The translations under genes and the position numbers were made by a program. This document shows, one piece after another, positions 30,076 to 63,001 of a stretch of 64,000 nt of DNA; position 1 is the first letter of the stretch; every line of letters starts with the position of its first letter. Source of the DNA: Eledone cirrhosa (Eukaryota); contig OZ024741.1 of assembly GCA_964016885.1 (NCBI GenBank), forward strand, positions 346,766,001 through 346,830,000, read 5' to 3'. Below the pieces are notes generated by a model. That model searched no databases, was not told the origin of the DNA, and was given only the letters and a program-made list of their open reading frames with translations.

Positions 30076-30144
<69 letters not shown>

Positions 30145-30214
30145 AAAAAGAGATGAAATCGAAAATGCAACTGGAGTCTTATTTAAAAAAAATATATATA
30201 TATTTATTTGGTTC

Positions 30215-30250
30215 CTTTACAGGTTTCGCAGTTCTTTTGCTTTTCAAAAG
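30215..30250 (-). ncRNA. Minimal hammerhead, U3-A8 core variant
   Basis: ctt-TTGAAAA-gca-aaagaac-tgc-GAAA-CCTG-TA-aag. Confidence 0.6.
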
Positions 30251-31619
30251 TTAGTTGAGATGGAGGGTCTGTGGTTTTTCTGACATCTGGTTGGTCTATG
30301 AATGTTACTTGTTTTATATGGAAAAAGTGGCTCGAAATGCAAGGTTTTTCGAGAAGTAATTTGATTGGGTTGTCAATAATTATAATAAATTTCGCGCCAG
30401 TTCGCGTTACAATAGTTCTTCAAATAAGAGGGGGGGGGTTGTCACAGGTTGTTTTTTCATATATGAGTGTTTGAATTTCTTTTTACTTGAAAAAAGGAGG
30501 CTCACGAAGGCTTTTTTTTGGTTGGTTATAAATGAAATTATGGCTGTCACGTGAACAGGTTTTCATTAAATTTTTGTGCTCTTATTTGGAAATCCATTCT
30601 GTAGCCTTTTTAGAGAATTTTTTGATAAGTGAAAGATAATGGTCAAGAGAAAGAGATGGGAGAATTGTTCTGGTTCAGTGAATATGGTTAGTTCGCTGGG
30701 GTGTCAGAATTCAGATTTTCTATTGAATAAAGAAAGTAAAGATATGTATGTTTATTTGTGTGCTTGTGTGTGTGTGTGTGTGTTGTGTGTGTGTGTTTGA
30801 ATTTCTTTACTTTAAAAAAAGGTGGCTCACGAAGGCTTTTTTTTAATAAACGTGATTTGATTGGTTATAAATGAAATTTGGCTGTCATGTGAACAAGTTT
30901 TCATTACATTTTTGCGCCCTTATTTGGAAAACTATTCTGTAGCCTTTATAGCGAATATTATGACAATGGAAAGATAGTGGTCAAGAGAAATGGGATTGGG
31001 AGTATTGTTCTGCTTCAGTGAATATGGTTAGTTCGCTGGGGTGTCAGAGTTCAGATTTTCTATTGAAGTGAAGATATGTATGTTTATTTGTGTGCTTGTG
31101 TGTGTGTATGTGTGTGTGTGTGTGTGTGTGTATGTGTGTATTGGAAGATTATTCTATTAGTAGAAATGGGGGAGGGAGTTGTGTGTGTGTGTGTATATGG
31201 GTGTTATGTGTGTGTGTGCGAGTATGTTAAGATGGAGAGATTATATATTTTGTGTGTGTGTATATATATGTGTGTAGGAAAGTGGTTCTATTAGTAGAAA
31301 TGGGGAGGGAGTTGTGGGTGTGGGGGTTGTTATGTGTGTGTATGGGTGTTATGTGTGTGGGAGTATGGTTAGCATGTTAAGATGAAGAGAATATATATAT
31401 ATATATATTGTGTGTGTGTGCATGTGTGTGTGTAGGAAAGTGATTTATTTAGTAGGAATATTTTTGAATGAACATATTTTCCTTACTTATTCGTATTTGC
31501 TGTTGTATTGTCAGTGCAAACGTATGTTAAGGTTTATTTAGTTCGGGTTTTTATTTTCTAAAGTAGAAGGTGTTATGTGTGTGTGTGTATGTCATATTAT
31601 GGTGTTGACATAATGTATA

Positions 31620-33520
31620 TTAAACCATATTTAATGTTGGTCTATATTTTTGAATAAACATATTTTCCTTATTTATTCGCATTTGTTCTGTTGTATTGTT
31701 AACGCAAAGGTAAAATGGGAAGACTTGGAATTTGGGTGTCTTATTACTTGGGCAAATGTCTAGATGTGCACTTAGTGGTATCTGTCTCGTGGTTAGATCT
31801 CGTAATTGTTGGCGATGAACTGTCATTCTGTTTCTGAGTGTGAGTTTAGTTTGTCCTATATAATCTTCATTGCATCCTTTACATTTAATGGCATAAATTA
31901 GATTTTTTGATGAGCAAGTGAAGTGATTTTTTACAGTAAAATTTTGTCCTGATTTAAATGTATACGTGTTGCCTTCAATGAGGTGAGTGCAGGTTCCACA
32001 ATTAGAGCGACCACATTTTTTGATACTTGGTTGTGGGTTTGTGGTAGGTAATTTGGCATTGGTGAGTAATGTTTTCAGTGATTTTGGTTGTTTTTTGCTT
32101 TTGATTATTTTGTGTGTTTCAAGGGCTTTTTTCATTCTTGGGTTTTGTTTTAGTAGTGGGATGTTATTGTGAATAGTGTTGTAAGCTTCCGCATTTCTTG
32201 GGTTGTGTGTTGAGATATGTGATAGAATATTGGACGTACCTTGAATTTGTTTCTGTTTCCGTAATTCATCAATGCCTATTGCTTTAGCCCTTTCTATTCC
32301 ATTATTTATTAGTAATAGTGGGTACTCGCTCTCGAGTAGAATTTCCTTTAATTCTTGAAGTCTTTTATTTCGCGTTTCATAATTGGAGACAATTGTGCAA
32401 ATTCTTCTTGCTAGGTTAAAAGGAATGTTCGTCTTCGTGTGCTTTGGATGGTTGGAGGTGAATAGCAGATATTGTTTGGAATCTGTTGGTTTGTAGTGTA
32501 TGTCAGTTTCGATATTTGTGTCTTTATTTAAGATTAAGATGTCCAGAAATGGGAGTTGATCTTGGCTGTATTCCATTGTGAATTGGATGTGGTTATTGAT
32601 GCCGTTTATTAAGTTTTTGAAATCCTTCAGTTGGTCGAGTGTGTGGGACCAAAGAATGAGGCAATCATCCAAGTAGCGTTTCCAATTCTCTGATAAATAT
32701 TTGTGGAAGTTCAATCCGTATTTTGATTTGGACTGTTTATATATCTGGACTTCTAAGTATGCCATGACTAAGTTGGCATAAGTTAGAGCGGCTTTTGTAC
32801 CCATCGTAGTCCCCGATATTTGCTTGTAAGTATTGCCATCGAAATCAAAAAAGTTGTTTTGTAGGATGAATTTTAATCCCTCAGTGATGAAGCTTTTTTT
32901 CTATTCTGTCAGGTATCTCATTGGTATATTTCTCTAGCCAGAATCCTATTGCTTCTAGTCCGTATTGGTGTGGGATCGTTGTGTAGAGATTCACTACATC
33001 GAAAGACACAATAATAGTGTCGTTGTTGACATGTTTGGGGAGGTGGTTTAAGAGGTCCAGATCGTCTCTTACAAGGCTTGGTATGTGTTTCAGTATTGGT
33101 TTCAGTAGTATGTCTATAAAGTTGCTCAATCTGTGTGTTTCACATTGTGGGCCCGCTACAATTGGTCTTAATTTAAGGTCTGTGGGGTATTGTGTGTTCA
33201 CGCAGGCTGAGGTGGATTGTTTACAGGCATCGTTGATTATTTTACACTTGTGGATCTTCGGAAGTCCGTAAAGGTTGCTGGTTTTGTATTCAAAATTTGT
33301 TAAATAATCACGTTCCTTTTTAGTTAGGTTTTCCTGGTATCGATAAATCAGTGTGTTTAATTTGGTCATTATTTTTGATTGTTGGTAGTTTTTTACTCTT
33401 TCATAGTAATTAGTATTTTGTAAGAGAGAGAACATAGAATTTTTATATTTTTCAGCCTCCATAATGACATCAGTACTTCCCTTGTCTGCTTCCTTAATTA
33501 TAATGTCCGTATTGTTTTTT
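31620..33520 (-). pseudogene. Neptune PLE RT/GIY-YIG ORF, frameshifted near 32890
   Basis: ORFs 32881-33462 and 31620-32804 are collinear with 53527-55281. Confidence 0.9.
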
Positions 33521-33787
33521 ATATATATATATATATTGTTGAGGAACTACTTCTACCAAGCTCGTCCCATGGATTGAGTGCTCTACTGCTACGGCTATAA
33601 CCCTCCAGTTATATTTACCCATTTACCGTATAGGTCGCAGTCCCAAAATCTGCCAACATTCCCAACGCGAGAGGCTATGTCTGCTGACTGACTGTCTCTT
33701 CACTCATCTTCCTGGGACACAACGCACGAACAGTAAAGGAGCTTCATGCCAACCCACAAACCACAATAAAGCCACTCGCTGGTGCGG

Positions 33788-37919: not shown

Positions 37920-38144
<225 letters not shown>

Positions 38145-38176
38145 TACCCACTCTCCTACCCTAAGTATTGAGTACT

Positions 38177-38500
38177 CTGGATTTTCACTCTGAAACTGGA
38201 TCTACACCCGGAGTTTTCTTGAACTTCCACCAGGAAATCTTTTCGTATCACGGATATTTTCTTTACTTCTTGCATTATTTGAATATACCACGACTCTATC
38301 ACTTTTCCTCCACTATACTATTCTTACTTCCAACTTCTTCTTCTCACCCATCTATTTCTGTCTCGCCCGAGGACCTTCATCCTGCCCAATTCAACCCTGC
38401 CCGTTCCCTCTATATTTCTAATTTCTCATCCATTCTTCTGATGAAGGGCTAACTTCAGAAACGCTAAGATCCACTTCCTCCTATGTCAAGCGTTAGTCTA
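38177..38500 (+). mobile_element. Second copy of the PLE pseudo-LTR fragment with a minimal hammerhead (~38434-38469)
   Basis: tctt-CTGATGA-agggctaacttca-GAAAC-GCT-aaga. Confidence 0.65.
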
Positions 38501-39875
38501 ATATATTCCCTCCATATACTATAGCGATGTTGTTGTTATTTCTGTTTACCTTTTACACACACACATAGACACACACATATATGTATATCTTTGTATCGGC
38601 AAGAATGACATTTGTTCCTGCCAATAATATCTCTCAACTAACACCCAAAGCGTTGCAAACGACTATTAAACGCAGATTAATTTGAGTATTGCCGCAAAAA
38701 TATAACTATCAATATCAAATAATAGATACAGGAAACATTTCAGATAATTCTCATTTGTTAGGTAACTCAATATTTGGTCTTACAGCGAGAAGGCAGGGGT
38801 GTACGAATTTAATATATGCTAGTATATAGACTTAAGCTGAAACATTCTTTATTCATATGGACATCTACGTTTGCCTTCTTGTTCCAAGCGGCATGAATTT
38901 ATTTCCGCAACCTGCTCTTACTTAAAGCTGTGGACCACATATCTTCGTATCCGACATTTAGGTGATGTCGAAATTTTGCGGCTTCCCCCACTTCGCAAAC
39001 ATTCGTCGTAATATTTACGTCAAGGAATGATACTCGATGTGATATAAGAAAGATTTTCTCCGCGTTATATAGAGATGAGCCTCCTCGTGAGATAATCAAG
39101 CAAAACAGTTGAATCCCGTGTATCCAATCGCGTACACGTGTCGGTAAACTTGAAATCCATTATTATCTGCTAACAAATAAACGAGGAACTGAGTAAATGA
39201 TCACAAACTAATTTTGTTTTATTGCACTCGTTTCAAATTTCTCTTCCAATCTATATAGATGTATATCTCGATCGTTGTGCACCACGCCATTCGCCTAGAG
39301 AACAGATAATGTGACATTTGTTCCTTCCGCTTTTAAACACATTACAGATATTTTTGGTTTTTCTATTGTTGTCTAAAAAATAGAGTAATATCTTATAGTG
39401 AATTCTCGTAATAACTAAAATAATACAATTCAATGAGGGAAATCTTTGGTGGTAATCATGTAAGTAAATGCTAAATCGCCAATAAAACACACGCTGACTG
39501 GTTTTAAAAAAACCGTGCATGCTTTTATGTAATTCCAGCAATTAATTTCTCTAAAAGAACAACGTAGGTATTAGAAGAGTGGGTTTATCTTGGTCTAACA
39601 TATACAACTTATTCATGGTTGGATGTCATATCAGGACCCATAAAGGTCAAAGAATTGTAGGAAATACATAACAATTCTCACTGAAATATGAATGTTATGT
39701 TGTAGGAAGAAGGCTTGAATAATATATGTGAAAGGACGGATTGTTTTCAGTTAAATAATTACGTTAGACAAACATTCTGCGAAAACCAGGCCAACTGCGC
39801 AAGTGAACAAACAATAATTTTATCGTATATATATATATATACATATATATATCGTATATATATATATATATATAT

Positions 39876-39916
<41 letters not shown>

Positions 39917-39921
<5 letters not shown>

Positions 39922-42900
39922 GTAAGTATGTATGTATACGTACATACATATATGTATACAGACGTACAGTAGCATGCATACATATACATATATATATATA
40001 TATATACATACATATACATATATATACATATATGCATACAGGTACACATACATATATGCACGCATCAGTTTAGCGGACGTTTATTACAACGCCGCTTTGT
40101 TCGTTTGTTTGTCAACAAACCGAACAGCCTGAATTTATGCCATACGGTGTTAAGGCAACCACGTCACCTTTTTGTTCAACACTGACACAGGAACGATGTA
40201 CTAGTTTCAAGCTTGTTAGCTATCATCAGCACCGTTTACCCATCTGCCAGATAGTTGAACGTTCGAAAGTATATACTTTCCTTATGAAAATTAACGGCTG
40301 AGCAGCCTAATTTGCATATTGAGTGAGTTAAATCGGTCAGGCATACCGAAAACGATAAGTTGAAAAAAATGAAAACGAAATTTCATTTCTCACTCTTAGT
40401 ATGGCACTTACTTAAATGTAAGTATGTATGTATACGTACATACATATATGTATACAGACGTACAGTAGCATGCATACATATACATATATATATATATATA
40501 TATATACATACATATACATATATATACATATATGCATACAGGTACACATACATATATGCACGCATCAGTTTAGCGGACGTTTATTACAACGCCGCTTTGT
40601 TCGTTTGTTTGTCAACAAACCGAACAGCCTGAATTTATGCCATACGGTGTTAAGGCAACCACGTCACCTTTTTGTTCAACACTGACACAGGAACGATGTA
40701 CTAGTTTCAAGCTTGTTAGCTATCATCAGCACCGTTTACCCATCTGCCAGATAGTTGAACGTTCGAAAGTATATACTTTCCTTATGAAAATTAACGGCTG
40801 AGCAGCCTAATTTGCATATTGAGTGAGTTAAATCGGTCAGGCATACCGAAAACGATAAGTTGAAAAAAATGAAAACGAAATTTCATTTCTCACTCTTAGT
40901 ATGGCACTTACTTAAATGTAAGTATGTATGTATACGTACATACATATATGTATACAGACGTACAGTAGCATGCATACATATACATATATATATATATATA
41001 TACATACATATACATATATATACATATATGCATACAGGTACACATACATATATGCACGCATCAGTTTAGCGGACGTTTATTACAACGCCGCTTTGTTCGT
41101 TTGTTTGTCAACAAACCGAACAGCCTGAATTTATGCCATACGGTGTTAAGGCAACCACGTCACCTTTTTGTTCAACACTGACACAGGAACGATGTACTAG
41201 TTTCAAGCTTGTTAGCTATCATCAGCACCGTTTACCCATCTGCCAGATAGTTGAACGTTCGAAAGTATATACTTTCCTTATGAAAATTAACGGCTGAGCA
41301 GCCTAATTTGCATATTGAGTGAGTTAAATCGGTCAGGCATACCGAAAACGGTAAGTTGAAAAAAATGAAAACGAAATTTCATTTCTCACTCTTAGTATGG
41401 CACTTACTTAAATGTAAGTATGTATGTATACGTACATACATATATGTATACAGACGTACAGTAGCATGCATACATATACATATATATATATATATATACA
41501 TACATATACATATATATACATATATGCATACAGGTACACATACATATATGCACGCATCAGTTTAGCGGACGTTTATTACAACGCCGCTTTGTTCGTTTGT
41601 TTGTCAACAAACCGAACAGCCTGAATTTATGCCATACGGTGTTAAGGCAACCACGTCACCTTTTTGTTCAACACTGACACAGGAACGATGTACTAGTTTC
41701 AAGCTTGTTAGCTATCATCAGCACCGTTTACCCATCTGCCAGATAGTTGAACGTTCGAAAGTATATACTTTCCTTATGAAAATTAACGGCTGAGCAGCCT
41801 AATTTGCATATTGAGTGAGTTAAATCGGTCAGGCATACCGAAAACGATAAGTTGAAAAAAATGAAAACGAAATTTCATTTCTCACTCTTAGTATGGCACT
41901 TACTTAAATGTAAGTATGTATGTATACGTACATACATATATGTATACAGACGTACAGTAGCATGCATACATATACATATATATATATATATATACATACA
42001 TATACATATATATACATATATGCATACAGGTACACATACATATATGCACGCATCAGTTTAGCGGACGTTTATTACAACGCCGCTTTGTTCGTTTGTTTGT
42101 CAACAAACCGAACAGCCTGAATTCATGCCATACGGTGTTAAGGCAACCACGTCACCTTTTTGTTCAACACTGACACAGGAACGATGTACTAGTTTCAAGC
42201 TTGTTAGCTATCATCAGCACCGTTTACCCATCTGCCAGATAGTTGAACGTTCGAAATTATATACTTTCCTTATGAAAATTAACGGCTGAGCAGCCTAATT
42301 TGCATATTGAGTGAGTTAAATCGGTCAGGCATACCGAAAACGATAAGTTGAAAAAAATGAAAACGAAATTTCATTTCTCACTCTTAGTATGGCACTTACT
42401 TAAATGTAAGTATGTATGTATACGTACATACATATATGTATACAGACGTACAGTAGCATGCATACATATACATATATATATATATATATACATACATATA
42501 CATATATATACATATATGCATACAGGTACACATACATATATGCACGCATCAGTTTAGCGGACGTTTATTACAACGCCGCTTTGTTCGTTTGTTTGTCAAC
42601 AAACCGAACAGCCTGAATTTATGCCATACGGTGTTAAGGCAACCACGTCACCTTTTTGTTCAACACTGACACAGGAACGATGTACTAGTTTCAAGCTTGT
42701 TAGCTATCATCAGCACCGTTTACCCATCTGCCAGATAGTTGAACGTTCGAAAGTATATACTTTCCTTATGAAAATTAACGGCTGAGCAGCCTAATTTGCA
42801 TATTGAGTGAGTTAAATCGGTCAGGCATACCGAAAACGATAAGTTGAAAAAAATGAAAACGAAATTTCATTTCTCACTCTTAGTATGGCACTTACTTAAA

Positions 42901-45900
42901 TGTAAGTATGTATGTATACGTACATACATATATGTATACAGACGTACAGTAGCATGCATACATATACATATATATATATATATACATACATATACATATA
43001 TATACATATATGCATACAGGTACACATACATATATGCACGCATCAGTTTAGCGGACGTTTATTACAACGCCGCTTTGTTCGTTTGTTTGTCAACAAACCG
43101 AACAGCCTGAATTTATGCCATACGGTGTTAAGGCAACCACGTCACCTTTTTGTTCAACACTGACACAGGAACGATGTACTAGTTTCAAGCTTGTTAGCTA
43201 TCATCAGCACCGTTTACCCATCTGCCAGATAGTTGAACGTTCGAAAGTATATACTTTCCTTATGAAAATTAACGGCTGAGCAGCCTAATTTGCATATTGA
43301 GTGAGTTAAATCGGTCAGGCATACCGAAAACGATAAGTTGAAAAAAATGAAAACGAAATTTCATTTCTCACTCTTAGTATGGCACTTACTTAAATGTAAG
43401 TATGTATGTATACGTACATACATATATGTATACAGACGTACAGTAGCATGCATACATATACATATATATATATATATATACATACATATACATATATATA
43501 CATATATGCATACAGGTACACATACATATATGCACGCATCAGTTTAGCGGACGTTTATTACAACGCCGCTTTGTTCGTTTGTTTGTCAACAAACCGAACA
43601 GCCTGAATTTATGCCATACGGTGTTAAGGCAACCACGTCACCTTTTTGTTCAACACTGACACAGGAACGATGTACTAGTTTCAAGCTTGTTAGCTATCAT
43701 CAGCACCGTTTACCCATCTGCCAGATAGTTGAACGTTCGAAAGTATATACTTTCCTTATGAAAATTAACGGCTGAGCAGCCTAATTTGCATATTGAGTGA
43801 GTTAAATCGGTCAGGCATACCGAAAACGATAAGTTGAAAAAAATGAAAACGAAATTTCATTTCTCACTCTTAGTATGGCACTTACTTAAATGTAAGTATG
43901 TATGTATACGTACATACATATATGTATACAGACGTACAGTAGCATGCATACATATACATATATATATATATATATACATACATATACATATATATACATA
44001 TATGCATACAGGTACACATACATATATGCACGCATCAGTTTAGCGGACGTTTATTACAACGCCGCTTTGTTCGTTTGTTTGTCAACAAACCGAACAGCCT
44101 GAATTTATGCCATACGGTGTTAAGGCAACCACGTCACCTTTTTGTTCAACACTGACACAGGAACGATGTACTAGTTTCAAGCTTGTTAGCTATCATCAGC
44201 ACCGTTTACCCATCTGCCAGATAGTTGAACGTTCGAAAGTATATACTTTCCTTATGAAAATTAACGGCTGAGCAGCCTAATTTGCATATTGAGTGAGTTA
44301 AATCGGTCAGGCATACCGAAAACGATAAGTTGAAAAAAATGAAAACGAAATTTCATTTCTCACTCTTAGTATGGCACTTACTTAAATGTAAGTATGTATG
44401 TATACGTACATACATATATGTATACAGACGTACAGTAGCATGCATACATATACATATATATATATATATATATACATACATATACATATATATACATATA
44501 TGCATACAGGTACACATACATATATGCACGCATCAGTTTAGCGGACGTTTATTACAACGCCGCTTTGTTCGTTTGTTTGTCAACAAACCGAACAGCCTGA
44601 ATTTATGCCATACGGTGTTAAGGCAACCACGTCACCTTTTTGTTCAACACTGACACAGGAACGATGTACTAGTTTCAAGCTTGTTAGCTATCATCAGCAC
44701 CGTTTACCCATCTGCCAGATAGTTGAACGTTCGAAAGTATATACTTTCCTTATGAAAATTAACGGCTGAGCAGCCTAATTTGCATATTGAGTGAGTTAAA
44801 TCGGTCAGGCATACCGAAAACGATAAGTTGAAAAAAATGAAAACGAAATTTCATTTCTCACTCTTAGTATGGCACTTACTTAAATGTAAGTATGTATGTA
44901 TACGTACATACATATATGTATACAGACGTACAGTAGCATGCATACATATACATATATATATATATATATACATACATATACATATATATACATATATGCA
45001 TACAGGTACACATACATATATGCACGCATCAGTTTAGCGGACGTTTATTACAACGCCGCTTTGTTCGTTTGTTTGTCAACAAACCGAACAGCCTGAATTT
45101 ATGCCATACGGTGTTAAGGCAACCACGTCACCTTTTTGTTCAACACTGACACAGGAACGATGTACTAGTTTCAAGCTTGTTAGCTATCATCAGCACCGTT
45201 TACCCATCTGCCAGATAGTTGAACGTTCGAAAGTATATACTTTCCTTATGAAAATTAACGGCTGAGCAGCCTAATTTGCATATTGAGTGAGTTAAATCGG
45301 TCAGGCATACCGAAAACGATAAGTTGAAAAAAATGAAAACGAAATTTCATTTCTCACTCTTAGTATGGCACTTACTTAAATGTAAGTATGTATGTATACG
45401 TACATACATATATGTATACAGACGTACAGTAGCATGCATACATATACATATATATATATATATATACATACATATACATATATATACATATATGCATACA
45501 GGTACACATACATATATGCACGCATCAGTTTAGCGGACGTTTATTACAACGCCGCTTTGTTCGTTTGTTTGTCAACAAACCGAACAGCCTGAATTTATGC
45601 CATACGGTGTTAAGGCAACCACGTCACCTTTTTGTTCAACACTGACACAGGAACGATGTACTAGTTTCAAGCTTGTTAGCTATCATCAGCACCGTTTACC
45701 CATCTGCCAGATAGTTGAACGTTCGAAAGTATATACTTTCCTTATGAAAATTAACGGCTGAGCAGCCTAATTTGCATATTGAGTGAGTTAAATCGGTCAG
45801 GCATACCGAAAACGATAAGTTGAAAAAAATGAAAACGAAATTTCATTTCTCACTCTTAGTATGGCACTTACTTAAATGTAAGTATGTATGTATACGTACA

Positions 45901-47514
45901 TACATATATGTATACAGACGTACAGTAGCATGCATACATATACATATATATATATATATATACATACATATACATATATATACATATATGCATACAGGTA
46001 CACATACATATATGCACGCATCAGTTTAGCGGACGTTTATTACAACGCCGCTTTGTTCGTTTGTTTGTCAACAAACCGAACAGCCTGAATTTATGCCATA
46101 CGGTGTTAAGGCAACCACGTCACCTTTTTGTTCAACACTGACACAGGAACGATGTACTAGTTTCAAGCTTGTTAGCTATCATCAGCACCGTTTACCCATC
46201 TGCCAGATAGTTGAACGTTCGAAAGTATATACTTTCCTTATGAAAATTAACGGCTGAGCAGCCTAATTTGCATATTGAGTGAGTTAAATCGGTCAGGCAT
46301 ACCGAAAACGATAAGTTGAAAAAAATGAAAACGAAATTTCATTTCTCACTCTTAGTATGGCACTTACTTAAATGTAAGTATGTATGTATACGTACATACA
46401 TATATGTATACAGACGTACAGTAGCATGCATACATATACATATATATATATATATATACATACATATACATATATATACATATATGCATACAGGTACACA
46501 TACATATATGCACGCATCAGTTTAGCGGACGTTTATTACAACGCCGCTTTGTTCGTTTGTTTGTCAACAAACCGAACAGCCTGAATTTATGCCATACGGT
46601 GTTAAGGCAACCACGTCACCTTTTTGTTCAACACTGACACAGGAACGATGTACTAGTTTCAAGCTTGTTAGCTATCATCAGCACCGTTTACCCATCTGCC
46701 AGATAGTTGAACGTTCGAAAGTATATACTTTCCTTATGAAAATTAACGGCTGAGCAGCCTAATTTGCATATTGAGTGAGTTAAATCGGTCAGGCATACCG
46801 AAAACGATAAGTTGAAAAAAATGAAAACGAAATTTCATTTCTCACTCTTAGTATGGCACTTACTTAAATGTAAGTATGTATGTATACGTACATACATATA
46901 TGTATACAGACGTACAGTAGCATGCATACATATACATATATATATATATATATACATACATATACATATATATACATATATGCATACAGGTACACATACA
47001 TATATGCACGCATCAGTTTAGCGGACGTTTATTACAACGCCGCTTTGTTCGTTTGTTTGTCAACAAACCGAACAGCCTGAATTTATGCCATACGGTGTTA
47101 AGGCAACCACGTCACCTTTTTGTTCAACACTGACACAGGAACGATGTACTAGTTTCAAGCTTGTTAGCTATCATCAGCACCGTTTACCCATCTGCCAGAT
47201 AGTTGAACGTTCGAAAGTATATACTTTCCTTATGAAAATTAACGGCTGAGCAGCCTAATTTGCATATTGAGTGAGTTAAATCGGTCAGGCATACCGAAAA
47301 CGATAAGTTGATGCGTGCATATATGTATGTGTACCTGTATGCATATATGTATATATATGTATATGTATGTATATATATATATATATATGTATATGTATGC
47401 ATGCTACTGTACGTCTGTATACATATATGTATGTACGTATACATACATACTTACATTTAAGTAAGTGCCATACTAAGAGTGAGAAATGAAATTTCGTTTT
47501 CATTTTTTTCAACT

Positions 47515-47517
<3 letters not shown>
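39917..47517 (-). repeat. Tandem array of 15 ~496-bp hammerhead-bearing units (retrozyme-like) with a terminal ~208-bp inversion, flanked by (TA)n
   Basis: Period 494-500 bp from recurring ORF-track starts (40360, 40860, 41356 ... 46812); 47309-47517 is the reverse complement of the next expected segment. Confidence 0.95.
40192..40236 (-). ncRNA. Minimal type I hammerhead, first of 15 (starts 40192, 40692, 41188, 41684, 42180, 42676, 43170, 43666, 44162, 44660, 45156, 45652, 46148, 46644, 47140)
   Basis: aacggtg-CTGATGA-t-agct-aaca-agct-t-GAAA-CTAG-TA|catcgtt: 7-bp stem I, 4-bp stem II, palindromic stem III loop, GUA cleavage triplet (cut between 40199 and 40198). Confidence 0.88.
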
Positions 47518-47562
<45 letters not shown>

Positions 47563-47596
47563 AAACTGTGAGTTTTTAACTCAATATATACTTTTG

Positions 47597-47646
<50 letters not shown>

Positions 47647-47990
47647 GGCGATGAATTAGTTTTGCGAGGGTTTTGATATGAAATCGTGTGTCGAAACAAA
47701 TATATATATCGTATTCCAACTAATTAAGAAGTTATTTCTATCTTGTGTCTTATTTTCATTGTTCTATCTACAAACACACACACGCACACACACAGACACA
47801 TGCAACCCCCCCCCCCCCCCCCCACACACACATACACACACACATATACCTATATAAATGAATCTGAAACATGGTTGGATTCTTCGTCGACAAAAATTTA
47901 AGCGATGGTGCATGCACACAACTCCAACAAAGGTCAATTCTCTATCTTGTACGATTACAATAACTATTACCATTATTACTTTTATCAGTG

Positions 47991-48186
47991 GGCGGTGGAT
48001 TGGCAGTATCGGTAGAGGGTCGGATGCCATGCTTTGAAGCATAGAGTTACTTCCCTTTATGATCTGAGTTCAAATCCCGCCGAGGTTAACTTTGTCTTTC
48101 ATCCTTACGGGGTCGATAAAATAAAGTACCAGTAATACACTGAGATAATTGCTGGCCTTGTGCCAAAAGTAGAAACAATTATTATT
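47991..48186 (+). mobile_element. Full-length tRNA-derived SINE (Nin/Deu-like core) with an (ATT)n tail
   Basis: A box TGGCAGTATCGG, B box GAGTTCAAATCC, core CTTTCATCCTTACGGGGTCGATAAAATAAAGTACCAG. Confidence 0.88.
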
Positions 48187-50439
48187 CGGCGGCTACGATG
48201 TGTACGCATCTCCCAGCCGACTTGGATCGAGGGGAGGAATTGCTGTGCTTTTTCGGAGAGGTTTGGATGTCGCCATACGGGCCATCTCCATGGACCCAGA
48301 GAGTAAGTTGGTGGTGCTGGATGTGACCAGCGGAGACGGGCAAGCTTTCAGGTCAGTGGACGTCTATGCCCCGACAGGTGCAGGCCGCGTGATTTCTTCC
48401 GGCGTGTGGAGACCTTTCTTGGAACGTCCCGCTCTTTAGTGTTAGTGGGCGACTGGAGCGGGATCTTAGATGCACGCTGGGACTTTGTGGGATTAGCGGA
48501 TAGGTGAGGAGGATGTAAAGCCTAGCAAACCTGCTCAGACGGTTTCAACTGTCTGACAGCTACCGTCTGGATTTCCCGAATGTGGCAATGTGGACATGGA
48601 CAAACTGCTTCGGGTCATCGAGATCATATCTAAATAGGGTATTTTGTAGGGAAATAGATAGGTCTAGCATAGGCTGTCCACATTTCAAAATAGTCGACTA
48701 CACGGACCAGAAATTCGTGATCTGTGAGGTTGCCTTAGATAGGCTTCATAGACAAGGACCCGGCTACTGAAAGCTAAACGCGTCATTATCTGCGCACAAG
48801 GCCTACAGAGACCAGATTAGCGAACTACTTAAGCGGGCGTTGACGGGCCATCGTCAACGACAAATGGTGGTTTTCTCTGAAATAGAGTCCATTAGGTTTA
48901 GTAGGGCTTTAGCAATAGAGAAAAATAAAGCAGAGGGAGAACTAGTTAGAAAATTAGACGAGGCGCTTAGTAAAGGCATCGCGACCGACGTACTTGCGGC
49001 GAAATTGGCCCTTGACCAATTCTTCAATGCAAAGCACGAAGGCTGCGTTGTCAGACACGAGGGGACGAAAGCAATTCAATGGGCCCGAGTGGCGGGCGCG
49101 CGTCGTAGCAACAAAGCCATGATCCGGTCATTGGTGGACCACGACGGGCACATGCTACTCGATCCCGGGAAAATGTGTTAAGCTTTTCAGTGACACTTCG
49201 CTCAGCTGTTCGGGGGCAGCGGCGGGGCGGATCGAGGGATGGACTGCACTACACTAAGAGGATGGACGGCACTACACTAAGAGAATACGAAGCGGTGACA
49301 GGAGCAATATTTAACCTGGAAAAGTCGGTGGGCCTGCAGCTTGGCTCCTGGAGAGGCAGGTCCATGCCGCCCAACAACGTCGTCGGGCGCTGGACGGAGG
49401 GACCAGTTAAATTGCTGGGGGTCTGGTTCAGTCCGCACCTCCAGACGGACAAAAACTGGGACGAGGTGACGAGCAGGATGGCTTCCATGACCCAGAAACG
49501 CAGAGAGGAAGGTATCCCTGAAAGGTCGAGCGGATGTGGCGAATGCGAACACCGCGTCCGTCATCTACTACCACCTGACCGTCGTGCCTTGCCCTAAGCC
49601 TCGCCTGACTGCTCTGGAGCGTTTGCTCTTTCGCTTTTTGTGGAAGGGACGCGCTCCGATGGTCAAGCGGTCCATCTGCTGTCAACACGCGCTACGTGGA
49701 GAGCAGGCATGCTGTGGGGCTCAGGCCTCTTCCTCGACGGTGATCAGGTGTGACCGCCGTTTGCTAGACGCTTCTTTCCCCAGCTAGTCTCCTTGATGGA
49801 GCTGCAGTTCTGGGTCAAGCGAAGACCGAGAGGGAGCGCTTGGAGACTGGAATGTCTTCAGGCGCTCACAGCTCTCGACCAGTCGGTAATGTGATTGGTG
49901 GAAACTCCACCTTGGCGTTCTATAGAGGATTAGTGTAGGGGAAGAGCGAGGACGTACTTGGGGAAACTCTAGGCGTTGACGAAAATCAACTTGCCAATCT
50001 CTTCGGAAGAACTTTCGGGCCGGGGCCTATGGACAACTTCCAGAAATCCCTGGCCTGGCAGTGCTACCGAGGAGCTTTGCCAGTTCGGGATAAACTCAAC
50101 AGGCATGGAAGTGCCGTCAACCGAGCATGTCCGAGATGCGCACAGGGCGACAAAACCGTTCTGCACGCACTCGTCCAGTGTCCGAGCATTGCTGACTTGT
50201 GGGTTTATGTCGAACACCTGCTGTCGCGTGTAGGACGGATACGACTATCAGCTGAGTCCATCGTGAGGATTGCCCCGCCCTCTTCCTTTAGCCGGGAAGG
50301 GCAGGAAGTTTTTATCTGTCTGGTGGCCATGGCGAATGAGATAGTATGGTGGACACGTTTGAAAGGGCTGAAGACAAGCACTTACCTCTTCGGTGATGCT
50401 CTGATTAATTTTTTCAAATTTCATTTGAAAAGGAAAATC
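48185..50439 (+). mobile_element. Tx1 family 1 copy D: 5'-truncated ORF2 lacking the RT core and the 3' end
   Basis: Collinear with copy C from FGGYDVYAS; jumps from GMD to GTTLREY near 49250; stops at KRKI. Confidence 0.9.
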
Positions 50440-51790
50440 GTAATTTGGGTAGTATCATTAGAGCCCATAGTAAATTCGACATTACTATGGGCTCTAATGA
50501 TTCTGCCCAAATTACGATCTTGTGGGCCTCTTTCTTCTATTTAACATAAATGCTTCTTTTCCCCACCTTAAAGGTGGTTTATATCGTGATGACTATCTTC
50601 TTCTTTCCACTAACCTTAGCCTATCAGAAATTGAAAAAAACTAAAAAAACTTATTAGAACTTTCCTCAATGACTATTATAGTCTCACTATTACATTTAAA
50701 AACACCAGTAAAGTAGTTAATTTCCCTGATATAACTTTAGACTTATCTACGGGTATCTACCAACCTTACCATAAACCAAACCAAAACTTACATTATATAC
50801 ACTCACAATCTAATCACCCTAAATCTATCCTTAAAAACCTAGCATATAATATCTCACTCAGAATTTCTAACCTTTCATCTAACCAGGATGTATTCGATAA
50901 AAATGCGAACTTTTATAACGAAGTTTTAGCTAGAAGCGGCCACAAAAACAAATTAGTATATATACCTTGTACCAATAATATTACAAATATACAACCCAAT
51001 ATTACCAACAAACACGAAATGAAATATACACATCTAAATGCCACTCACACTATACCAAAAAATACCAACTTAAAACTTAATTTCTCTACCTCTTCTAATA
51101 TACAATATAATAACTTTCAAAAAACCATTCATCCTAATATTCCAATATATGTTAATAACATTACTAACAAAATTCCTAATAATCAGGCTAAAACACCTAA
51201 ATATGTGAATCTAACTAAACATATGTGTAATAAAATCACTAATACTAATTATCTTAGTAAACATCAGGATATATCGTATAAAAATAAAAAAACAACATCG
51301 AAACCGTAATAGACGAGTTACTTGGTATAATGCTTCATTTAATCTACAAATTAAAGATAATATAGCTAAAAAACTTTATACTATCCTAGAGAAAAACTTC
51401 CCGACAAACCATAAATACCATTAAATTTTAAATAGATCAACGGTCAAATTCTCCTACTCCACAACCAAAAATATACAACAAAATATAAGTGCTTACAATG
51501 CATATAAATGAAAAAAAAACATGAATATACCACCAACACATCAAACTAACCATAATACTAAAATAAACCACAGCAAACCACCATCTCATTTACATACAAC
51601 AAGTCGAGAAAATTCCACACCTAATTTGACTAACTCCCCTGATATAACATTCACGAAAGGTTCTAACCGTAGAAACAAAGCAGGAACTGATTATACAAAG
51701 CGGTTGCCTGTCTGGCAGAAATCGAAAACAATAGCGTAAGGTCTTCGAAATGCTTTTAATTAAGCATACAGTGTATTGCAAAATACACTA
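50437..51790 (+). mobile_element. Decayed Hydra-type PLE fragment with a 37-bp 5' fold-back
   Basis: FDITMGSNDSAQIT, GGLYRDD, YQPYHKPNQ..YIHSQSNHP, VTWYN..FN; arms at 50437-50473 and 50482-50518. Confidence 0.8.
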
Positions 51791-52141: not shown

Positions 52142-52191
<50 letters not shown>

Positions 52192-52329
52192 AGTGTAAGT
52201 TTCTATACAAAACGAAGGTTATAGAGAAAATTGAGGTTGGTAATGGCACATGGAATATATAAGAGACAGAATACTTTTTTGTGAAAAAACATATAATTTT
52301 ATAAGGTAAGGAAATAATAAAGGGTATAA

Positions 52330-52377
52330 AAAATGACCGGTTTCGATGGGTCTGCAAAAGCCATCTTTTCAAATGTT
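52330..52377 (-). ncRNA. Minimal hammerhead, U3-A8 core variant (mirror copy 55837-55885, +, with GUC>GCC)
   Basis: aacat-TTGAAAA-gatgg-cttttgcagac-ccatc-GAAA-CCGG-TC-atttt. Confidence 0.7.
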
Positions 52378-52748
52378 GATTAATATTAAGAAAATTAATA
52401 ATAAGAAGAGTTAAAATTTGAGATTTGAAAATTCAAGTATAAAATTCAGTGTGGGATTTCATAGTAGTTTTCATCTTGGTAGCAGCAAGTTGACTGCTGT
52501 GTGCCTTTCTGGTAGTGAATGAGGAGTTATTTGGGGGAGTGGGTTATTTTATAAAGGTCAGATTTAGCAATGGCCAGATGGCCAGCTGCTGGTAAGTGAG
52601 GGGGTGGAAGCAATATACATACATATATCTGCCTGTGGTCGGTAGGAGAGGGGAGAGTGATAGATAGGGATTTAGTGCACTTACACCTATATATACACAC
52701 ATACACTCATCCACACACACATACATATACATACATATATATATACAT

Positions 52749-52831
<83 letters not shown>

Positions 52832-53526
52832 TATATATACATATATATACATATACACACATACATACACACACACATACATATACATACACACATATAT
52901 ACACATACATACACATATATATATACATACACACACATATATATACATACACGTACATCCAGATACACACATATACACACACACACACATATATACACAT
53001 ACACACACATATATATACACACACACATATATATACACATACGCATACATCCAGATACACACATACATACACACACACACACACAATACACACACACAAT
53101 ACACACACACACACACACATACACATACATACACCCACACACCTAGAGAAATGGCCTCCAAATATATATATATATATATACATACATACACATATATTGT
53201 TTCCATAATATAAGAAGTTAGGACAGTGAAATTAAAATACAAGTTATTCTGATCACATTGAGTTCTTCATGTAGATTGCCCCCCCCCCCCAACCGACAGT
53301 GGTGAATTCTGTGTGCGCATATATATATATAGATATATGTGTGTGCACGTGCAGGGTTTAACATGGATGTGTTGGTCACACAAAGGCATGGTCCGTCAAC
53401 GAATAAACCTGATTCTACAGAATTGGTCTCTGGTCTTTAATAGTATTTATAATTATATACATGCCCACATACACACACATATATCTGTCACTCCGTGCGT
53501 ATGCGTGTTTATATTTTATGACAATT

Positions 53527-55281
53527 CTATTGGGGTGATAACCCGTTTAGTTTTGGTTTAAATTTGTTAAAGAATAGATTTTCTTTGTTTATTCTTTGTT
53601 GCTGTGTGAACGAATCTGAGCACTTGTCGAAGGGGAAGATTTTAAAGTTGGGTAGTGTCATTCCTGCGCAGTTCGCAATATGGCTGCTCAAGGGGATTTT
53701 TCTTGTGTTAGCGTCCCGGATTTGTTGGCGGTGGATGGTCATTCTTTTGCGTAATGAGGCGCCCGTCTGTCCTATGTAGTTGTGTTTGCACCCACCGCAA
53801 ATTATTACGTAAATCAAGTTCTCCGAGTTGCAGGTGAAATTGTTTTTTACTGTAAATGTTTGGCCATCTTTAAATGTAAATTGTTGTCCTTCAGTGAGGT
53901 AGAGGCACGTTCCACAGTTTGTTCTACCACATTTGGTAACTGTAGGGTTGAGAATTGGTTTGGGTATATTTGGTCCAGTGAGAATGCGTTTAAGTGATTT
54001 GGGTTTTTTTTTACTTTTAAGGATCTTGTGTGTTTCAAGAATAGACTTCATTTTTACATCTTTAAGTAGGATGGGGAGGTTTTTGTGTAGGTGATCAAAC
54101 ATTTCGGTATTTCTGGGGCTGAAAGTGGATACATATGGCAGGGTGTTGAGTGTGGTTTTCTGTTTTGGATTGTTAAGTTGGTGGGGATTTAGGTGTTTTG
54201 CCCTGTCTATTCCATTGTTGATTATTTCAAGTGGAAAGGCTCTTAAGATAAGGGTGTCTTTTAGTTCCTTTAGTCTTTGCTCCCGTTTAGGTAGATCTGA
54301 TACTATGGTACATATACGTTTGGCCAAATTGTAAGGAATGTTAAATTTTGTATGTTTTGGGTGACTTGATGTGAAAAAGAGGTATTGCTTGGAATCTGTG
54401 GGTTTATAGAATATATCTGTATCTAATTTCCCGTATATTACAGAGATGAGAATATCCAAGAAGGCTAATTCCTTGGGATTGGATTCCATTGTGAATTGTA
54501 TATTATTATCTATGTTGTTTATCATGTTTTTAAACATAGTAAGTGAGTTCATGTCTTCTTGCCATAGGATAAAGCAGTCGTCTAGATATCTTTTACAATT
54601 GGCTTTGAGGTGTGTGTGGAAAGAGTCTCCAAATAAGAGAAGGGACTGACTGTATATTTGTTGTTCATGGAATCCCATGACTAGGTTGGCATATGTGGGT
54701 GCTACTTTCGTGCCCATTGCAGTACCTGATACTGGTCTGTATGTTGAACCATTGAATGTGAAGTAGTTATTTTGTAGGATAAAGTGGAGTCCGTCAGTGA
54801 TAAAATCTTTGTTGATGCGTGTCGGTATTTCTGATGGGTGTGTGTTAAGCCAGTATTGGATTGCTGTTATTCCATAGTTGTGGGGTATGTTTGTGTAGAG
54901 GTTTATTACGTCAAAGGAGACAAGAATTGTATTTGCACTTACTGTTTTAGGGAGGTGCTTCAGCATGTCAAGGTCATCTCGTATGTAGCTCTGTATATGT
55001 TGTAGAAAGGGTTTCAGTAGGATGTCCAGAAAGTTGCTAAGTCTGTGGGTTTCACATGTAGGGCCTGCTATAATTGGCCTGAGTTTTAGGTCTTCTGGTG
55101 GTGTTAGTTCAATGTAATTGTTGGTTGAGGTGTCACATGCATCGTTTATGGGTTTACATTTGTGGAGTTTCGGTAAGCCGTAAAAAGAGCTTGTATTGCA
55201 TTCGAAGTGGCTTATATAGTTAAACTCTTTTGTGGTTAAGCTGTTGCGGTATGTATTCAGTGAGGTCAAAAGGTTCCCCAT
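53527..55281 (-). CDS. Neptune PLE RT + GIY-YIG, uninterrupted 584-codon frame but N-terminally truncated
   Basis: FYGLPKLHK, LRPII, SFDVINLYT, GTAMGTKVAP, KRYLDD, FLD, CGRTNCGTC, LIYVIICGGC..YIGQT, R..H, H..C, E..F..LN. Confidence 0.9.
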   Translation of the reverse strand: MGNLLTSLNTYRNSLTTKEFNYISHFECNTSSFYGLPKLHKCKPINDACDTSTNNYIELTPPEDLKLRPIIAGPTCETHRLSNFLDILLKPFLQHIQSYIRDDLDMLKHLPKTVSANTILVSFDVINLYTNIPHNYGITAIQYWLNTHPSEIPTRINKDFITDGLHFILQNNYFTFNGSTYRPVSGTAMGTKVAPTYANLVMGFHEQQIYSQSLLLFGDSFHTHLKANCKRYLDDCFILWQEDMNSLTMFKNMINNIDNNIQFTMESNPKELAFLDILISVIYGKLDTDIFYKPTDSKQYLFFTSSHPKHTKFNIPYNLAKRICTIVSDLPKREQRLKELKDTLILRAFPLEIINNGIDRAKHLNPHQLNNPKQKTTLNTLPYVSTFSPRNTEMFDHLHKNLPILLKDVKMKSILETHKILKSKKKPKSLKRILTGPNIPKPILNPTVTKCGRTNCGTCLYLTEGQQFTFKDGQTFTVKNNFTCNSENLIYVIICGGCKHNYIGQTGASLRKRMTIHRQQIRDANTRKIPLSSHIANCAGMTLPNFKIFPFDKCSDSFTQQQRINKENLFFNKFKPKLNGLSPQ

Positions 55282-55411
55282 TGTTTTGGTGTGTTTGTAT
55301 ATATATATGTGTATGTATGTGTATATATGTGTGTGTGTGTGTGTATGTGTGTATGTATATGTATGTGTGTGTGTATGTATGTGTGTATATGTATATATAT
55401 GTATATATATA

Positions 55412-55482
<71 letters not shown>

Positions 55483-56064
55483 ATGTATATGTATGTGTGT
55501 GTGGATGAGGGTATGTGTGTATATATAGGTGTAAGTGCACTAAATCCCTATCTATCACTCTCCCCTCTCCTACCGACCACAGGCAGATATATGTATGTAT
55601 ATTGCTTCCACCCCCTCACTGACCAGCAGCGGGCCATCTGGCCATTGCTAAATCTGACCTTTATAAAATAACCCACTCCCCCAAATAACTCCTCATTCAC
55701 TACCAGAAAGGCACACAGCAGTCAACTTGCTGCTACCAAGATGAAAACTACTATGAAATCCCACAATGAATTTTATACTTGAATTTTCAAATTTCAAATT
55801 TTAACTCTTCTTATTATTAATTTTCTTAATATTAATCAACATTTGAAAAGATGGCTTTTGCAGACCCATCGAAACCGGCCATTTTTTATACCCTTTATTA
55901 TTTCCTTACCTTATAAAATTATATGTTTTTTCACAAAAAAGTATTCTGTCTCTTATATATTCCATGTGCCATTACCAACCTCAATTTTCTCTCTCTCTCT
56001 CTATATATATATACATATATATATATGTTTATATAAATATATATATAAAAATATATATATATAT

Positions 56065-59544: not shown

Positions 59545-62500
59545 TTACAGACACATACTCAGAGAAGGCCCATTCATTCGGGCCATACTTGCTTCTCTCA
59601 CCCATCTTTCAACAAAATGCTGGGAAGAGAGCACTTCCCTCTCTACCCTGATTTTCCTTTTCAAATGAAATTTGAAAAAGTTAATCAGGGCATCACCGAA
59701 GAGGTAAGTGCTCGTCTTCAGCCCTTTCAAATGTGTCCACCATACTATCTCTTTCGCCATGGCCACCAGACAGATAAAATCTGCCTGCCCTTCCAGGCTA
59801 AAGGAAGGGGGCGGGGCAATCCTCACGATGGACTCAGCTGATAGCTGGATAGGTCCTACACGTGACAGCAGGTGTTCGACATAAACCCACAGGTCAGCAA
59901 TGCTCGGACACTGGACGAGTGCGTGCAGGACGGTTTCGTCGCCCTGCGCGCATCTCGGACATGCCCGGCTGACGGCACCTCCATGCCTGTAGAGTTTATC
60001 CCGAACTGGCAAAGCTCCTCGGTAGCACTGCCAGGCCAGGGATTTCTGGAAGTTGTCCATAGGCCCCGGCCCGAAAGTCCTTCCGAAGAGATTGGCTAGT
60101 TGATTTTCGTCGACGCCTAGAGTTTCTCCAAGTACGTCGTCGCTCTTCCCCTCCACTAATCCCCTATAGAACGCCAAGGTGGAGTTTCCACCGATCACAT
60201 TGCCCGATTGGTCGACGGCTGTGAGCGCCTGAAGACATTCCAGTCTCCAAGCGCTCCCTCTCGGTCTTCGCTTGACCCAGGACTGCAGCTCCGTCAAGGA
60301 GACGAGCTGGGGAAAAACGTGTCTTGCAAACGGCGACCACACCTGATCACCGTCGAGGGAGAGGTGGAGATGTCGTAGCCTGAGCGCGTGTCTGCGCATC
60401 ATCAGCCACGGCATGCCCAGCCCTCCACGTAGCGGGTGTTGACAGCAGATGGACCGCCTGACCATCGGAGCGCGTCCCTTCCACAAGAAGCGAAAGAGCA
60501 AACGCTCCAGCGCAGTCAGGCGGGGCTTAGGACAAGGTACGACGGTCAGGCGGTAGTAGATGACGGATGCGATGTACGCATTCGCCACCTCCGCTCGACC
60601 TTTCAGGGATAGCTTCCTCTCGGCCCATTTCTGGGTGAGAGAAGCCACCCTGCTCGTCACCTCGTCCCAGTTTTTGTCCGTCTGGAGGTCTGGACCGAAC
60701 CAGACCCCTAGCAATTTAACCGGTCCGTCCGTCCGTCCAGCGCCCGACGACGCTGTTGGACGGCATGGACCTGCCTCTCCAGGCCCGAGCTGCAGGCCCA
60801 CTGACTTTTCCTGGTTGATCATTGCTCCTGTCACCGCTTCGTATTCTCTTAGTGTAGTGCCAATCGCCTCGATGTGTTTGGCGTTCGACACCACTACGGT
60901 GACATCGTCGGCATATGCTGATACGGATCTTCCGCATCCTAGTTCGCGCGGGACCCCCCTCAACGTCTCCAGTTTGTGCAGTAATGGCTCGAGAGTCAAT
61001 ACGTACAATAGGGACGAGAGGGGACATCCTTGGCGGACCGAGCGCATGATGTTGAACGGTTCCGAAAGGTGACCGTTCACTCTCACTACAGAGCAGATGT
61101 CGCTGTGCATGGCAGCGATCCAGCCTCTGAAGACGGGCCCAAAGCCAGCCGCCCTCAGGACTGCCGTTAGGTAACGATGGTCGACCCTATCGAAGGCTTT
61201 CGACTGATCTAAATTGATCAAAGACCCACCCGTGCCAGGTTCCCTAGCTACCCTCTCTACGATGTATCGCATGAGGTGGAGGTTGTCGTGGATGGATCTG
61301 TCGGGAATGGCGCATGTCTGTGCCTCTCCCACCAGACCACCAACGACAAGCGCCAATCTCTTTGCTAGCACCTTGGCCAAAATCTTGAACTCTGTGTTTA
61401 GCAGAGTTATGGGCCTAAAATTATCTATGTTATCCCCCTTGTTCGGATCCTTTCTCAGCAGCGCCACCGCTCCTCGGCTCACAGAGCTGGGAATTCTCCC
61501 GTTCTGTTGCCAGTTGCAGTAGACGTCCGCCAAGAGGCCTCCGAACACGTTTGGCATTTGTACGTAAAGTTCATAGGTCAGACCATCCAAACCAGGCGAT
61601 TTGCCCCTTGTGCAACTAGTCATTGCATCCCGTACTTCAGCGGTTGTTATCGGCTTTTCGCAACACTCCTCCTCAGTGGTCGAAAGCCGCGGCAGTCCGT
61701 CGAGGTAGACACTAAAGTCCATCCCTCGATCCGGCCCGCCACTGCGCCCGAACAGTTGAGCGAAGTGTCGCTGAAAAGCTTCACACATTTGCCCGGGATC
61801 GAGTAGCATGCGCCCGTCGTGGTCCACCAAAGACAGGATCGTGGCTTTGTTGCCACGACGCGCCTCCGCCACTCGGGCCCATTCAACGGCTTTCGTCCCC
61901 TCGTGTCTGAGAGCACGCACCCTAGCTCTGACAACGCAGCCTTCGTGCTTTGCATTGAAGAATTGGTCAAGGGCCAATTTCGCCGCAAGTACGTCGGTCG
62001 CGATGCCTTTGCTAAGCGCCTCATCTAATTTTCGAACTAATTCTCCCTCTGCTCTATTTTTCTCTATTGCTAAAGTCTTACTAAACCTAATGAACTCTAT
62101 TCTAATTGCTCTTTTCAGAGCAAACCACCACTTGTTGTTGACGATGGCCCCCGTCAACGCCCGCTTAACTAGTTCGCTAATCCGGTCTCTGTAGGCCTTG
62201 CGCGCTGGTAAGGACGCGTTTAGCTTCCAGTAGCCGGGTCCTCGTCTATGAAGCCTATCTAAGTCAAGCACACAGATCACGAATTTGTGGTCCGTGTAGC
62301 TGACTATCTTGAATTGTGGACAGCCTATGCTAGACCTATCTATTTCCCTACAAAATACTCTATCTAGATATGATCTGGATGACCCTATGCGATTTGTCCA
62401 AGTCCACATTGGTACATTCGGGAAATCCATTCGGTATCTGTCAGACAGTTCAAAACGTCTGAGCAAGTTGGTGAGACTCTTGCACCCTCCTTCCCTATCC

Positions 62501-62967: not shown

Positions 62968-63001
62968 GTTGAAAAGGAGTGAAAAAGATGGGAAAGACCA
63001 C

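Follow-up and report, generated by a model that had tools for sequence, protein, structure and literature searches.

A hammerhead retrozyme array of Eledone cirrhosa that was likely inserted into (TA)n DNA by a Penelope-like element

Animal non-LTR (long terminal repeat) retrozymes are non-coding tandem units that each carry a type I hammerhead ribozyme, have a low G+C content, occur as thousands of dispersed monomers and multimers and share their genomes with Penelope-like elements (PLEs) (PMC7229834; bioRxiv 10.64898/2026.07.22.740005). The pseudo-LTR (pLTR) of a co-resident PLE is related to the retrozyme in 24 of 57 Xenopus families (bioRxiv 10.64898/2026.07.22.740005), and the route by which retrozymes enter new sites is described in both sources as unresolved. 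PLE insertions carry an inverted copy and a tail at one end (PMC8557442, PMC3846280), and how their tandem and inverted structures are built is likewise stated to be open (PMC8557442). A PLE protein acting in vitro on AT-rich DNA nicks both strands, extends both and uses two internal RNA start sites whose spacing equals the genomic tail (PMC11167929), and a pair of autonomous and non-autonomous PLEs is known to target a microsatellite (PMC9977147). Here we describe a tandem array in a window of 64,000 nt from Eledone cirrhosa (assembly GCA_964016885.1, contig OZ024741.1, positions 346,766,001 to 346,830,000 of the forward strand; coordinates below are those of the window). The array represents a single young insertion of a hammerhead family that is non-coding and of the animal non-LTR retrozyme type, and it was likely pasted into (TA)n DNA by the endonuclease and reverse transcriptase of a PLE acting in trans. 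An earlier note, made from the letters of the window alone, had proposed a retrozyme of an already known class that is mobilised by a (TA)n-targeting PLE. The class is indeed published, together with the circular-template and PLE-helper hypotheses, and the identification and the proposed mobilisation are now supported by the dispersal of thousands of copies, by two fixed 3' ends, by arms arranged head-to-head and by flanks of (TA)n, all as in the co-resident PLEs.

Tandem Repeats Finder delimited the array as 14.9 near-identical copies (99%) with a period of 496 nt, as the note had claimed. Successive unit starts are 496 nt apart except for one spacing each of 500, 494 and 498 nt, which reflect TA slippage. 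Nine of the 14 full units are identical, and the remainder vary by TA slippage or by the substitutions at 41351, 42124 and 42257, exactly the differences already listed in the note, with no other substitutions among the units. The unit has a G+C content of about 35%, and its longest open reading frames (ORFs) with an ATG encode 49 residues in the sense and 66 residues in the antisense direction, in agreement with the claim that no credible ORF is present. Positions within the unit are numbered from the predicted hammerhead cut on the minus strand. The position 47310 that had been taken as the end of the insertion is the end of the long arm; it is followed by an exact, inverted 209-nt piece of the unit, arranged head-to-head with the long arm with a 3-nt overlap at the junction, so that the whole insertion measures about 7.6 kb and runs to 47517. 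The predicted fold of the unit is strong (z of -10.6) but was discounted as a signal because much of it stems from the self-complementary TA mosaic. The AATAAA reported earlier for every unit is present once per unit on the minus strand; it sits in the most variable segment of the family and probably has no function.

A single minus-strand type I hammerhead was found in each of the 15 units, and the same pattern was found nowhere else in the window. The self-complementary hexamer ACUAGU of stem III, the U10.1-U11.1 pair and the cut site after GUA are as the note gave them; GUA is a natural hammerhead cut triplet (PMC1636495), and a self-complementary stem III marks the form that requires dimerisation (PMC4209133). 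The predicted stem I is longer than 7 bp and has an internal bulge, so that the motif is nearer to the canonical animal type I hammerhead than to the 'minimal' one that had been named. The 31-nt hammerhead core has 10,718 exact matches in the 3.0-Gb genome and none in a reversed control; the unit is not confined to this locus. Among 11 aligned sequences, nine of the 14 base pairs are changed on both sides, a count reached by none of 500 shuffles and compared with at most one in slid controls, and in the sister families stems I and II have undergone compensatory changes. A second hammerhead pattern, which requires a purine-pyrimidine pair at the base of stem II and hence excludes the 496-nt family, gave 19,158 further matches compared with 204 in the control, and these matches include the families with units of 466 and 311 nt.

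Copies of the 496-nt unit are dispersed genome-wide as monomers, dimers and multimers with 1–15 hammerheads per arm. The array in the window is 100% identical to copies on five contigs, is the longest seen and is among the youngest copies. Pieces of the unit were also found in contigs of four public sequencing runs (three organism codes), none of which bridges the inversion junction. The genome holds at least three young and abundant hammerhead families of this kind, with units of 496, 466 and 311 nt. The 466-nt sister family aligns with the 496-nt unit from end to end (309 identities in 534 columns); it has the canonical G-C pair at the base of stem II, has the promoter element and the two ends in common with the 496-nt family, and includes one 31-unit array together with an inverted one (L183 and L154; G000:C1 5.738–5.752 Mb and others). 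The 311-nt family (L159–L172; G000:C1 1.240–1.244 Mb) forms head-to-head arrays of 5+9 and 3+8 units. Further short hammerhead families with a palindromic stem III and no PLE ORF within 1.5 kb were seen at L158, L173, L181 and L182.

The ends of insertions were examined at 63 loci; the material covered the window, 12 best-match loci and 51 regions that hold the first 100 exact-core matches on contig C1. Among 95 core-bearing arms, 38 end near unit position 282 and 42 near position 340; these two fixed sites, which lie 58 nt from each other, together account for 80 arms. The positional C1 sample alone gives 59 of 72 arms. Alternating TA adjoins 72 of the 80 fixed ends, and a target-site duplication is unreadable within such flanks. 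The inner (5') ends are scattered whereas the 3' ends are fixed; the expectation of arrays with different start phases is thus borne out for the 5' ends and fails for the 3' ends. The 466-nt family ends at two homologous sites (seven ends seen). Strand switches are almost always head-to-head (45, compared with 2 that are tail-to-tail). The head-to-head pairs that could be classified number 38 (7 were not classified), with 33 short/long, 5 short/short and no long/long pairs, and the 33 short/long pairs compare with 18.7 expected under random pairing (p 1e-6). The two arms of a locus have a common haplotype, differing by 0.7% compared with 5.5% between loci (medians, 26 pairs). At flush junctions, 22 of 24 overlap by at least 1 nt, compared with 45% expected. 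In a sample biased towards hammerhead-bearing arms, 99 of 125 arms cross the predicted cut site and a single one starts within 5 nt of it; of the 20 partner arms that do not cross the cut, not one begins there. Because arms cross the cut and almost none start there, the template was probably continuous across it, either a circle or an uncleaved multimer, and a cleaved linear monomer, one of the forms first proposed, does not appear to have been the template. Past site 340 the sequence re-enters the next unit, and no arm in the 63 loci continues from the unit into an ORF.

Two other routes to inverted arms were considered. Twin priming of the L1 type on one linear RNA fits the window, where the long arm starts at 332, near site 340, but is not general, as the inner ends are scattered. 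Fold-back copying was rejected since the inner ends are seldom mirror images and the fixed sites at which the two arms stop differ.

The same anatomy is found in PLEs of this genome. Each first-look search gave more than 40,000 PLE candidates, and five families were compared: A (window 31623–32900), B (window 53530–55296), C (L093), D (L033) and E (L090). These families are abundant and have long open frames, some of their copies are identical, and the window itself carries two elements with a reverse transcriptase (RT) and a GIY-YIG domain. Families A, B and C, which we take to be Neptune-like from a cysteine motif, have a pair of fixed ends separated by about 65, 36 and 40 nt, respectively (overall about 36–65 nt), and (TA)n flanks, as read by eye; where both ends are visible, short/long head-to-head pairs occur at four of four loci of B, six of six of C and two of four of A. 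An ORF with RT and GIY-YIG domains was not found in the unit or continuous with it (the unit and the 63 loci), the PLE ORFs near units belong to families with ends of their own, and no PLE ORF lies within 1.5 kb of the other hammerhead-pattern loci (30 loci).

Several properties of these PLEs were recorded in passing. The family A copy of the window (about 30140–33550, minus strand) is 5'-truncated and frameshifted, retains RT and GIY-YIG and ends in (TA)n, and the family, whose tail measures about 65 nt, has many copies with open frames of 775 residues. The family B copy (about 52160–56060; ORF on the minus strand) comprises an inverted upstream piece in head-to-head orientation and ends in (TA)n-rich DNA. 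The tails of A, B and C (3' ends at L102, L128 and L186) each have a short GTGT-loop-ACAC hairpin. Families D and E (L204–L208, L090 and L033) have open frames of more than 1,200 residues, with dozens of copies of E identical at the protein level; both have a hammerhead-like motif of different sequence upstream of the ORF start, and both end inside the 5' ORF.

Apart from the ribozyme, the stretch at unit positions 376–388 is the most conserved among copies (0.6% divergence compared with 1–12% elsewhere), and it is kept in the 466-nt sister family. It contains a 12-mer that is identical at all 12 positions to one host U6 gene and has one mismatch to four others. With zero to one mismatch the 12-mer lies at -79 to -77, with a TATA box at -30, in the three top U6 loci, the best U6atac match and the only RNase MRP match, compared with a background of one match at up to one mismatch in 55 kb on both strands. 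At that position it is absent from eight lower-ranked U6 and three U6atac copies, most of them apparent retrocopies, and it is absent from the four U2 loci taken; the similarity to a U2-type promoter was no better than in shuffles. From the element and the TATA-like box, transcription is predicted to start at about unit position 450–456, just before the 5' strand of stem I in the orientation of the hammerhead and about 10–16 nt upstream of the core. The unit is therefore likely a self-transcribing RNA parasite with a copy of a host U6 promoter element. Tandem arrays of U2 genes (period about 2.2 kb) and U6 genes (about 1.8 kb) were seen at G000:C3 307.35–307.45 Mb and C19 31.78–31.84 Mb. The 311-nt family is without the -78 element; the 11-mer at its start recurs unchanged in an element near -270 of a host U6 gene and, in similar form, in U2 genes.

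We consider it quite likely that a PLE reverse transcribes a self-promoting retrozyme RNA, starting at the two fixed sites, onto both strands of a break in (TA)n DNA; the resulting head-to-head arms can be multimers at birth. The element and TATA box of one unit would start transcription just upstream of that unit's own hammerhead and read into the next unit, so that the RNA from cut to cut would carry its own otherwise external promoter. The hammerheads, probably acting as dimers through the self-complementary stem III, would release 496-nt monomers, which a host ligase would close into circles. The PLE protein would bind near the tail hairpin and nick both strands of the (TA)n target; cDNA synthesis would begin at site 282 for one strand and at site 340 for the second, each RT would continue past the cut site over a length that varies (7.4 kb and 0.2 kb in the window), and the two cDNA ends would be joined head-to-head, often through 1–5 nt of microhomology. 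The singleton nature of the substitutions (the three in the window, two at L035 and nine of ten at L039) is as expected if every unit was copied from one template. A more specific version, which we put forward tentatively, holds that the template is a viroid-like 496-nt circle that has captured a U6-type upstream promoter and undergoes twin rolling-circle reverse transcription by a dimeric PLE enzyme. Two cDNAs would then start on one circle, to either side of the tail hairpin and one per target strand, and would both run round it, and head-to-head multimeric arms would form in one step without homology to the helper.

A number of observations weigh against the proposed mechanism. For the ribozyme, the Rfam match was weak (Hammerhead_HH9, 18.5 bits, E 0.049, gathering score 52), and among the matches listed over 38000–49000 there was otherwise only microsatellite-driven miRNA and similar noise below gathering scores. 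The covariance-model check that had been suggested thus returned a sub-threshold hit, and because this match is weak the hammerhead call rests on the exact core and the covariation, the latter from a set of related sequences whose structure was read from one of them, so that it is supportive and yields no probability. The minimum-energy fold is without stem III, and co-folding of two hammerhead regions did not predict a dimer. The U-U pair, flagged earlier as non-canonical, does replace the usual G-C at the base of stem II; the axolotl HHR_Amex2 has the same pair and still cleaves, better as a dimer (PMC7229834). Eight of nine Xenopus retrozyme dimers were inactive in vitro (bioRxiv 10.64898/2026.07.22.740005). 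For the promoter, the element-to-TATA spacing is 43 nt (42 in the sister family) compared with 47–49 in host genes, the TATA is imperfect, and the T7 run in the tail could stop RNA polymerase III (Pol III) before site 340, although many copies have only T3–T4; given the shorter spacing and the T runs, the promoter may or may not be served by Pol III. For the insertion, 15 of the 95 arm ends lie elsewhere than at the fixed sites, mostly inside the microsatellite or at other insertions, and 21 of the 45 junctions show a gap rather than an overlap, in part because the computed extension of the arms stalls in the microsatellite. For the helper, none of families A–E showed significant homology to the 496-, 466- or 311-nt units outside simple repeats, and no canonical hammerhead was seen in families A–C. 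Finally, three of the five units of the L046 array share a variant and one 466-nt array alternates two core variants, both of which fit local amplification or a mixed multimer template.

The last point bears on the model favoured in bioRxiv 10.64898/2026.07.22.740005, in which a short PLE-mediated copy would have grown to 15 units by later local unequal crossover or slippage. This model also predicts the homogeneity within arrays, and it agrees with the rarity of long arrays, most arms holding 1–3 hammerheads; yet both arms are multimeric at single insertions (3+3 hammerheads at L033, 8+2 at L035 and 5+9 at a 311-nt locus), and the window array is among the youngest but also the longest, with three substitutions that have not propagated. 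We regard later growth as an unlikely general explanation, while local expansion after insertion may contribute to some arrays, such as L046. A considerably stronger contender, to which we allow a fair minority share of the probability, is a template that is linear and uncleaved, a transcript made by reading through a donor array, with a hammerhead that is slow or dispensable and no circle. Hammerhead mutants of an anole PLE did not impair insertion in vitro, where unprocessed RNA was the main substrate (PMC11167929), and both the weak U-U stem II and the arms that run through the cut site point the same way. Against such a transcript, the core and its pairing are conserved across families, which implies selection on cleavage, other animal retrozymes accumulate as circles (PMC7229834), and to yield a 7.4-kb arm, transcription would have to pass 14 T-rich tails and hammerheads in a donor with 15 or more near-identical units. 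Between these two continuous templates we slightly favour the circle.

The units might instead be pLTR concatemers of an autonomous PLE not yet found, truncated in cis, in which case there would be no separate parasite. Their anatomy is that of PLE ends, and the five families compared are drawn from probably many; but no arm among the 63 loci runs from a unit into an ORF, the nearby PLE ORFs have ends of their own, and the element of the small nuclear RNA (snRNA) type suggests a non-coding origin, which makes this origin distinctly improbable. Least credible of all is an assembly artefact, or an ordinary satellite in which a hammerhead-like motif arose by chance. Assembly of near-identical units is difficult and the Rfam score is below threshold, but thousands of dispersed copies have ordered ends, the stems covary, the second pattern far exceeds its control and pieces of the unit are present in the public runs; the exact copy number in the window alone could be wrong. 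Transcription from within the unit followed by PLE copying from two fixed sites remains our preferred account.

The features of the insertion are collected in Table 1. Elsewhere in the window, long interspersed nuclear element (LINE)-type retrotransposons lie at 59548–63006 (minus strand), 8933–11725 (plus), 2913–4007 (minus) and 49939–50541 (plus), the first with an uninterrupted 1,153-residue frame that contains endonuclease, RT and zinc-binding domains.

Table 1. Features of the retrozyme insertion and its flanks in the window.
Feature	Position	Strand	Remarks
Left (TA)n-rich target flank	39826..39916	.	adjoins outer end of insertion
Long arm	39917..47311	-	14.9 head-to-tail 496-nt units; 3' end 39917 = fixed site 1 (unit position 282)
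TA/CA mosaic	39917..40057	-	unit 142–282; self-complementary; length varies between loci
AATAAA	40080..40085	-	one per unit; within most variable segment of the family (12.5% divergence)
Type I hammerhead, first unit	40192..40236	-	core 40229–40199; predicted cut 40199/40198; 15 repeats up to 47177–47147
TATA-like box	40269..40276	-	43 nt past 12-nt element
12-nt element	40307..40318	-	identical to -78 element of one host U6 gene; contains octamer; one per unit
Tail between the two fixed 3' sites	40355..40412	-	58 nt, unit 283–340; predicted hairpin; T7 run; one per unit
Short inverted arm	47309..47517	+	unit positions 132–340; 3' end 47517 = fixed site 2 (position 340)
Right (TA)n-rich target flank	47518..47644	.	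adjoins outer end of insertion

Among described systems, the 496-nt family is closest to the animal non-LTR retrozymes and resembles axolotl hammerheads, HHR_Amex1 in its weak palindromic stem III and HHR_Amex2 in its U-U pair; at 496 nt its unit is longer than the 170–400 nt given in PMC7229834 and within the 51–972 nt given in bioRxiv 10.64898/2026.07.22.740005. Mobilisation of published retrozymes by PLEs was deduced from co-occurrence and pLTR homology, and fixed ends, tails, inverted arms and a promoter are not described in the accessible portions of those sources; the 496-nt family has an explicit insertion signature, and pLTR homology was not found among the five PLE families. In a literature search that most subscription papers lay outside, no report of tails, paired arms or a U6-type element in retrozymes was found; the class and the PLE hypothesis are published, whereas the insertion signatures and the U6-type promoter are apparently new, as judged from these searches. 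Endonuclease-positive (EN+) PLEs also have two fixed 3' ends, a tail usually at one end only, a head-to-head 5'-truncated copy and AT-rich or (TA)n targets (PMC11167929, PMC8557442, PMC3846280). Unlike them, the 496-nt family is without an ORF, its tail measures 58 nt compared with the usual 30–40 nt, its arms are many-unit concatemers, and the pairing of its arms has been quantified. Non-autonomous PLEs of Chlamys such as MRC1 are, like this family, non-coding and often form multicopy head-to-tail insertions, but their 3' ends resemble those of their autonomous partners, and their clade is without canonical hammerheads (PMC8557442), whereas the 496-nt family has a hammerhead and no matched partner. 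The family thereby offers insertion-level evidence that ties retrozyme copying to PLE structures, in a genome where retrozyme families sit beside PLE families with long open frames, and it suggests a rule of one start site per target strand, the two arms having a single source. Newt satellite 2 and schistosome Sm-alpha are also tandem hammerheads with promoters of their own, in which an upstream unit drives the next; the newt promoter is reported to be of the Pol II snRNA type and the schistosome promoter of the Pol III type (PMC2220036, PMC6765202), while the element of the 496-nt family matches the host U6, U6atac and MRP class and not the four U2 loci. A U6-type element inside the unit would explain both the transcription of such repeats and their need for the tandem form.

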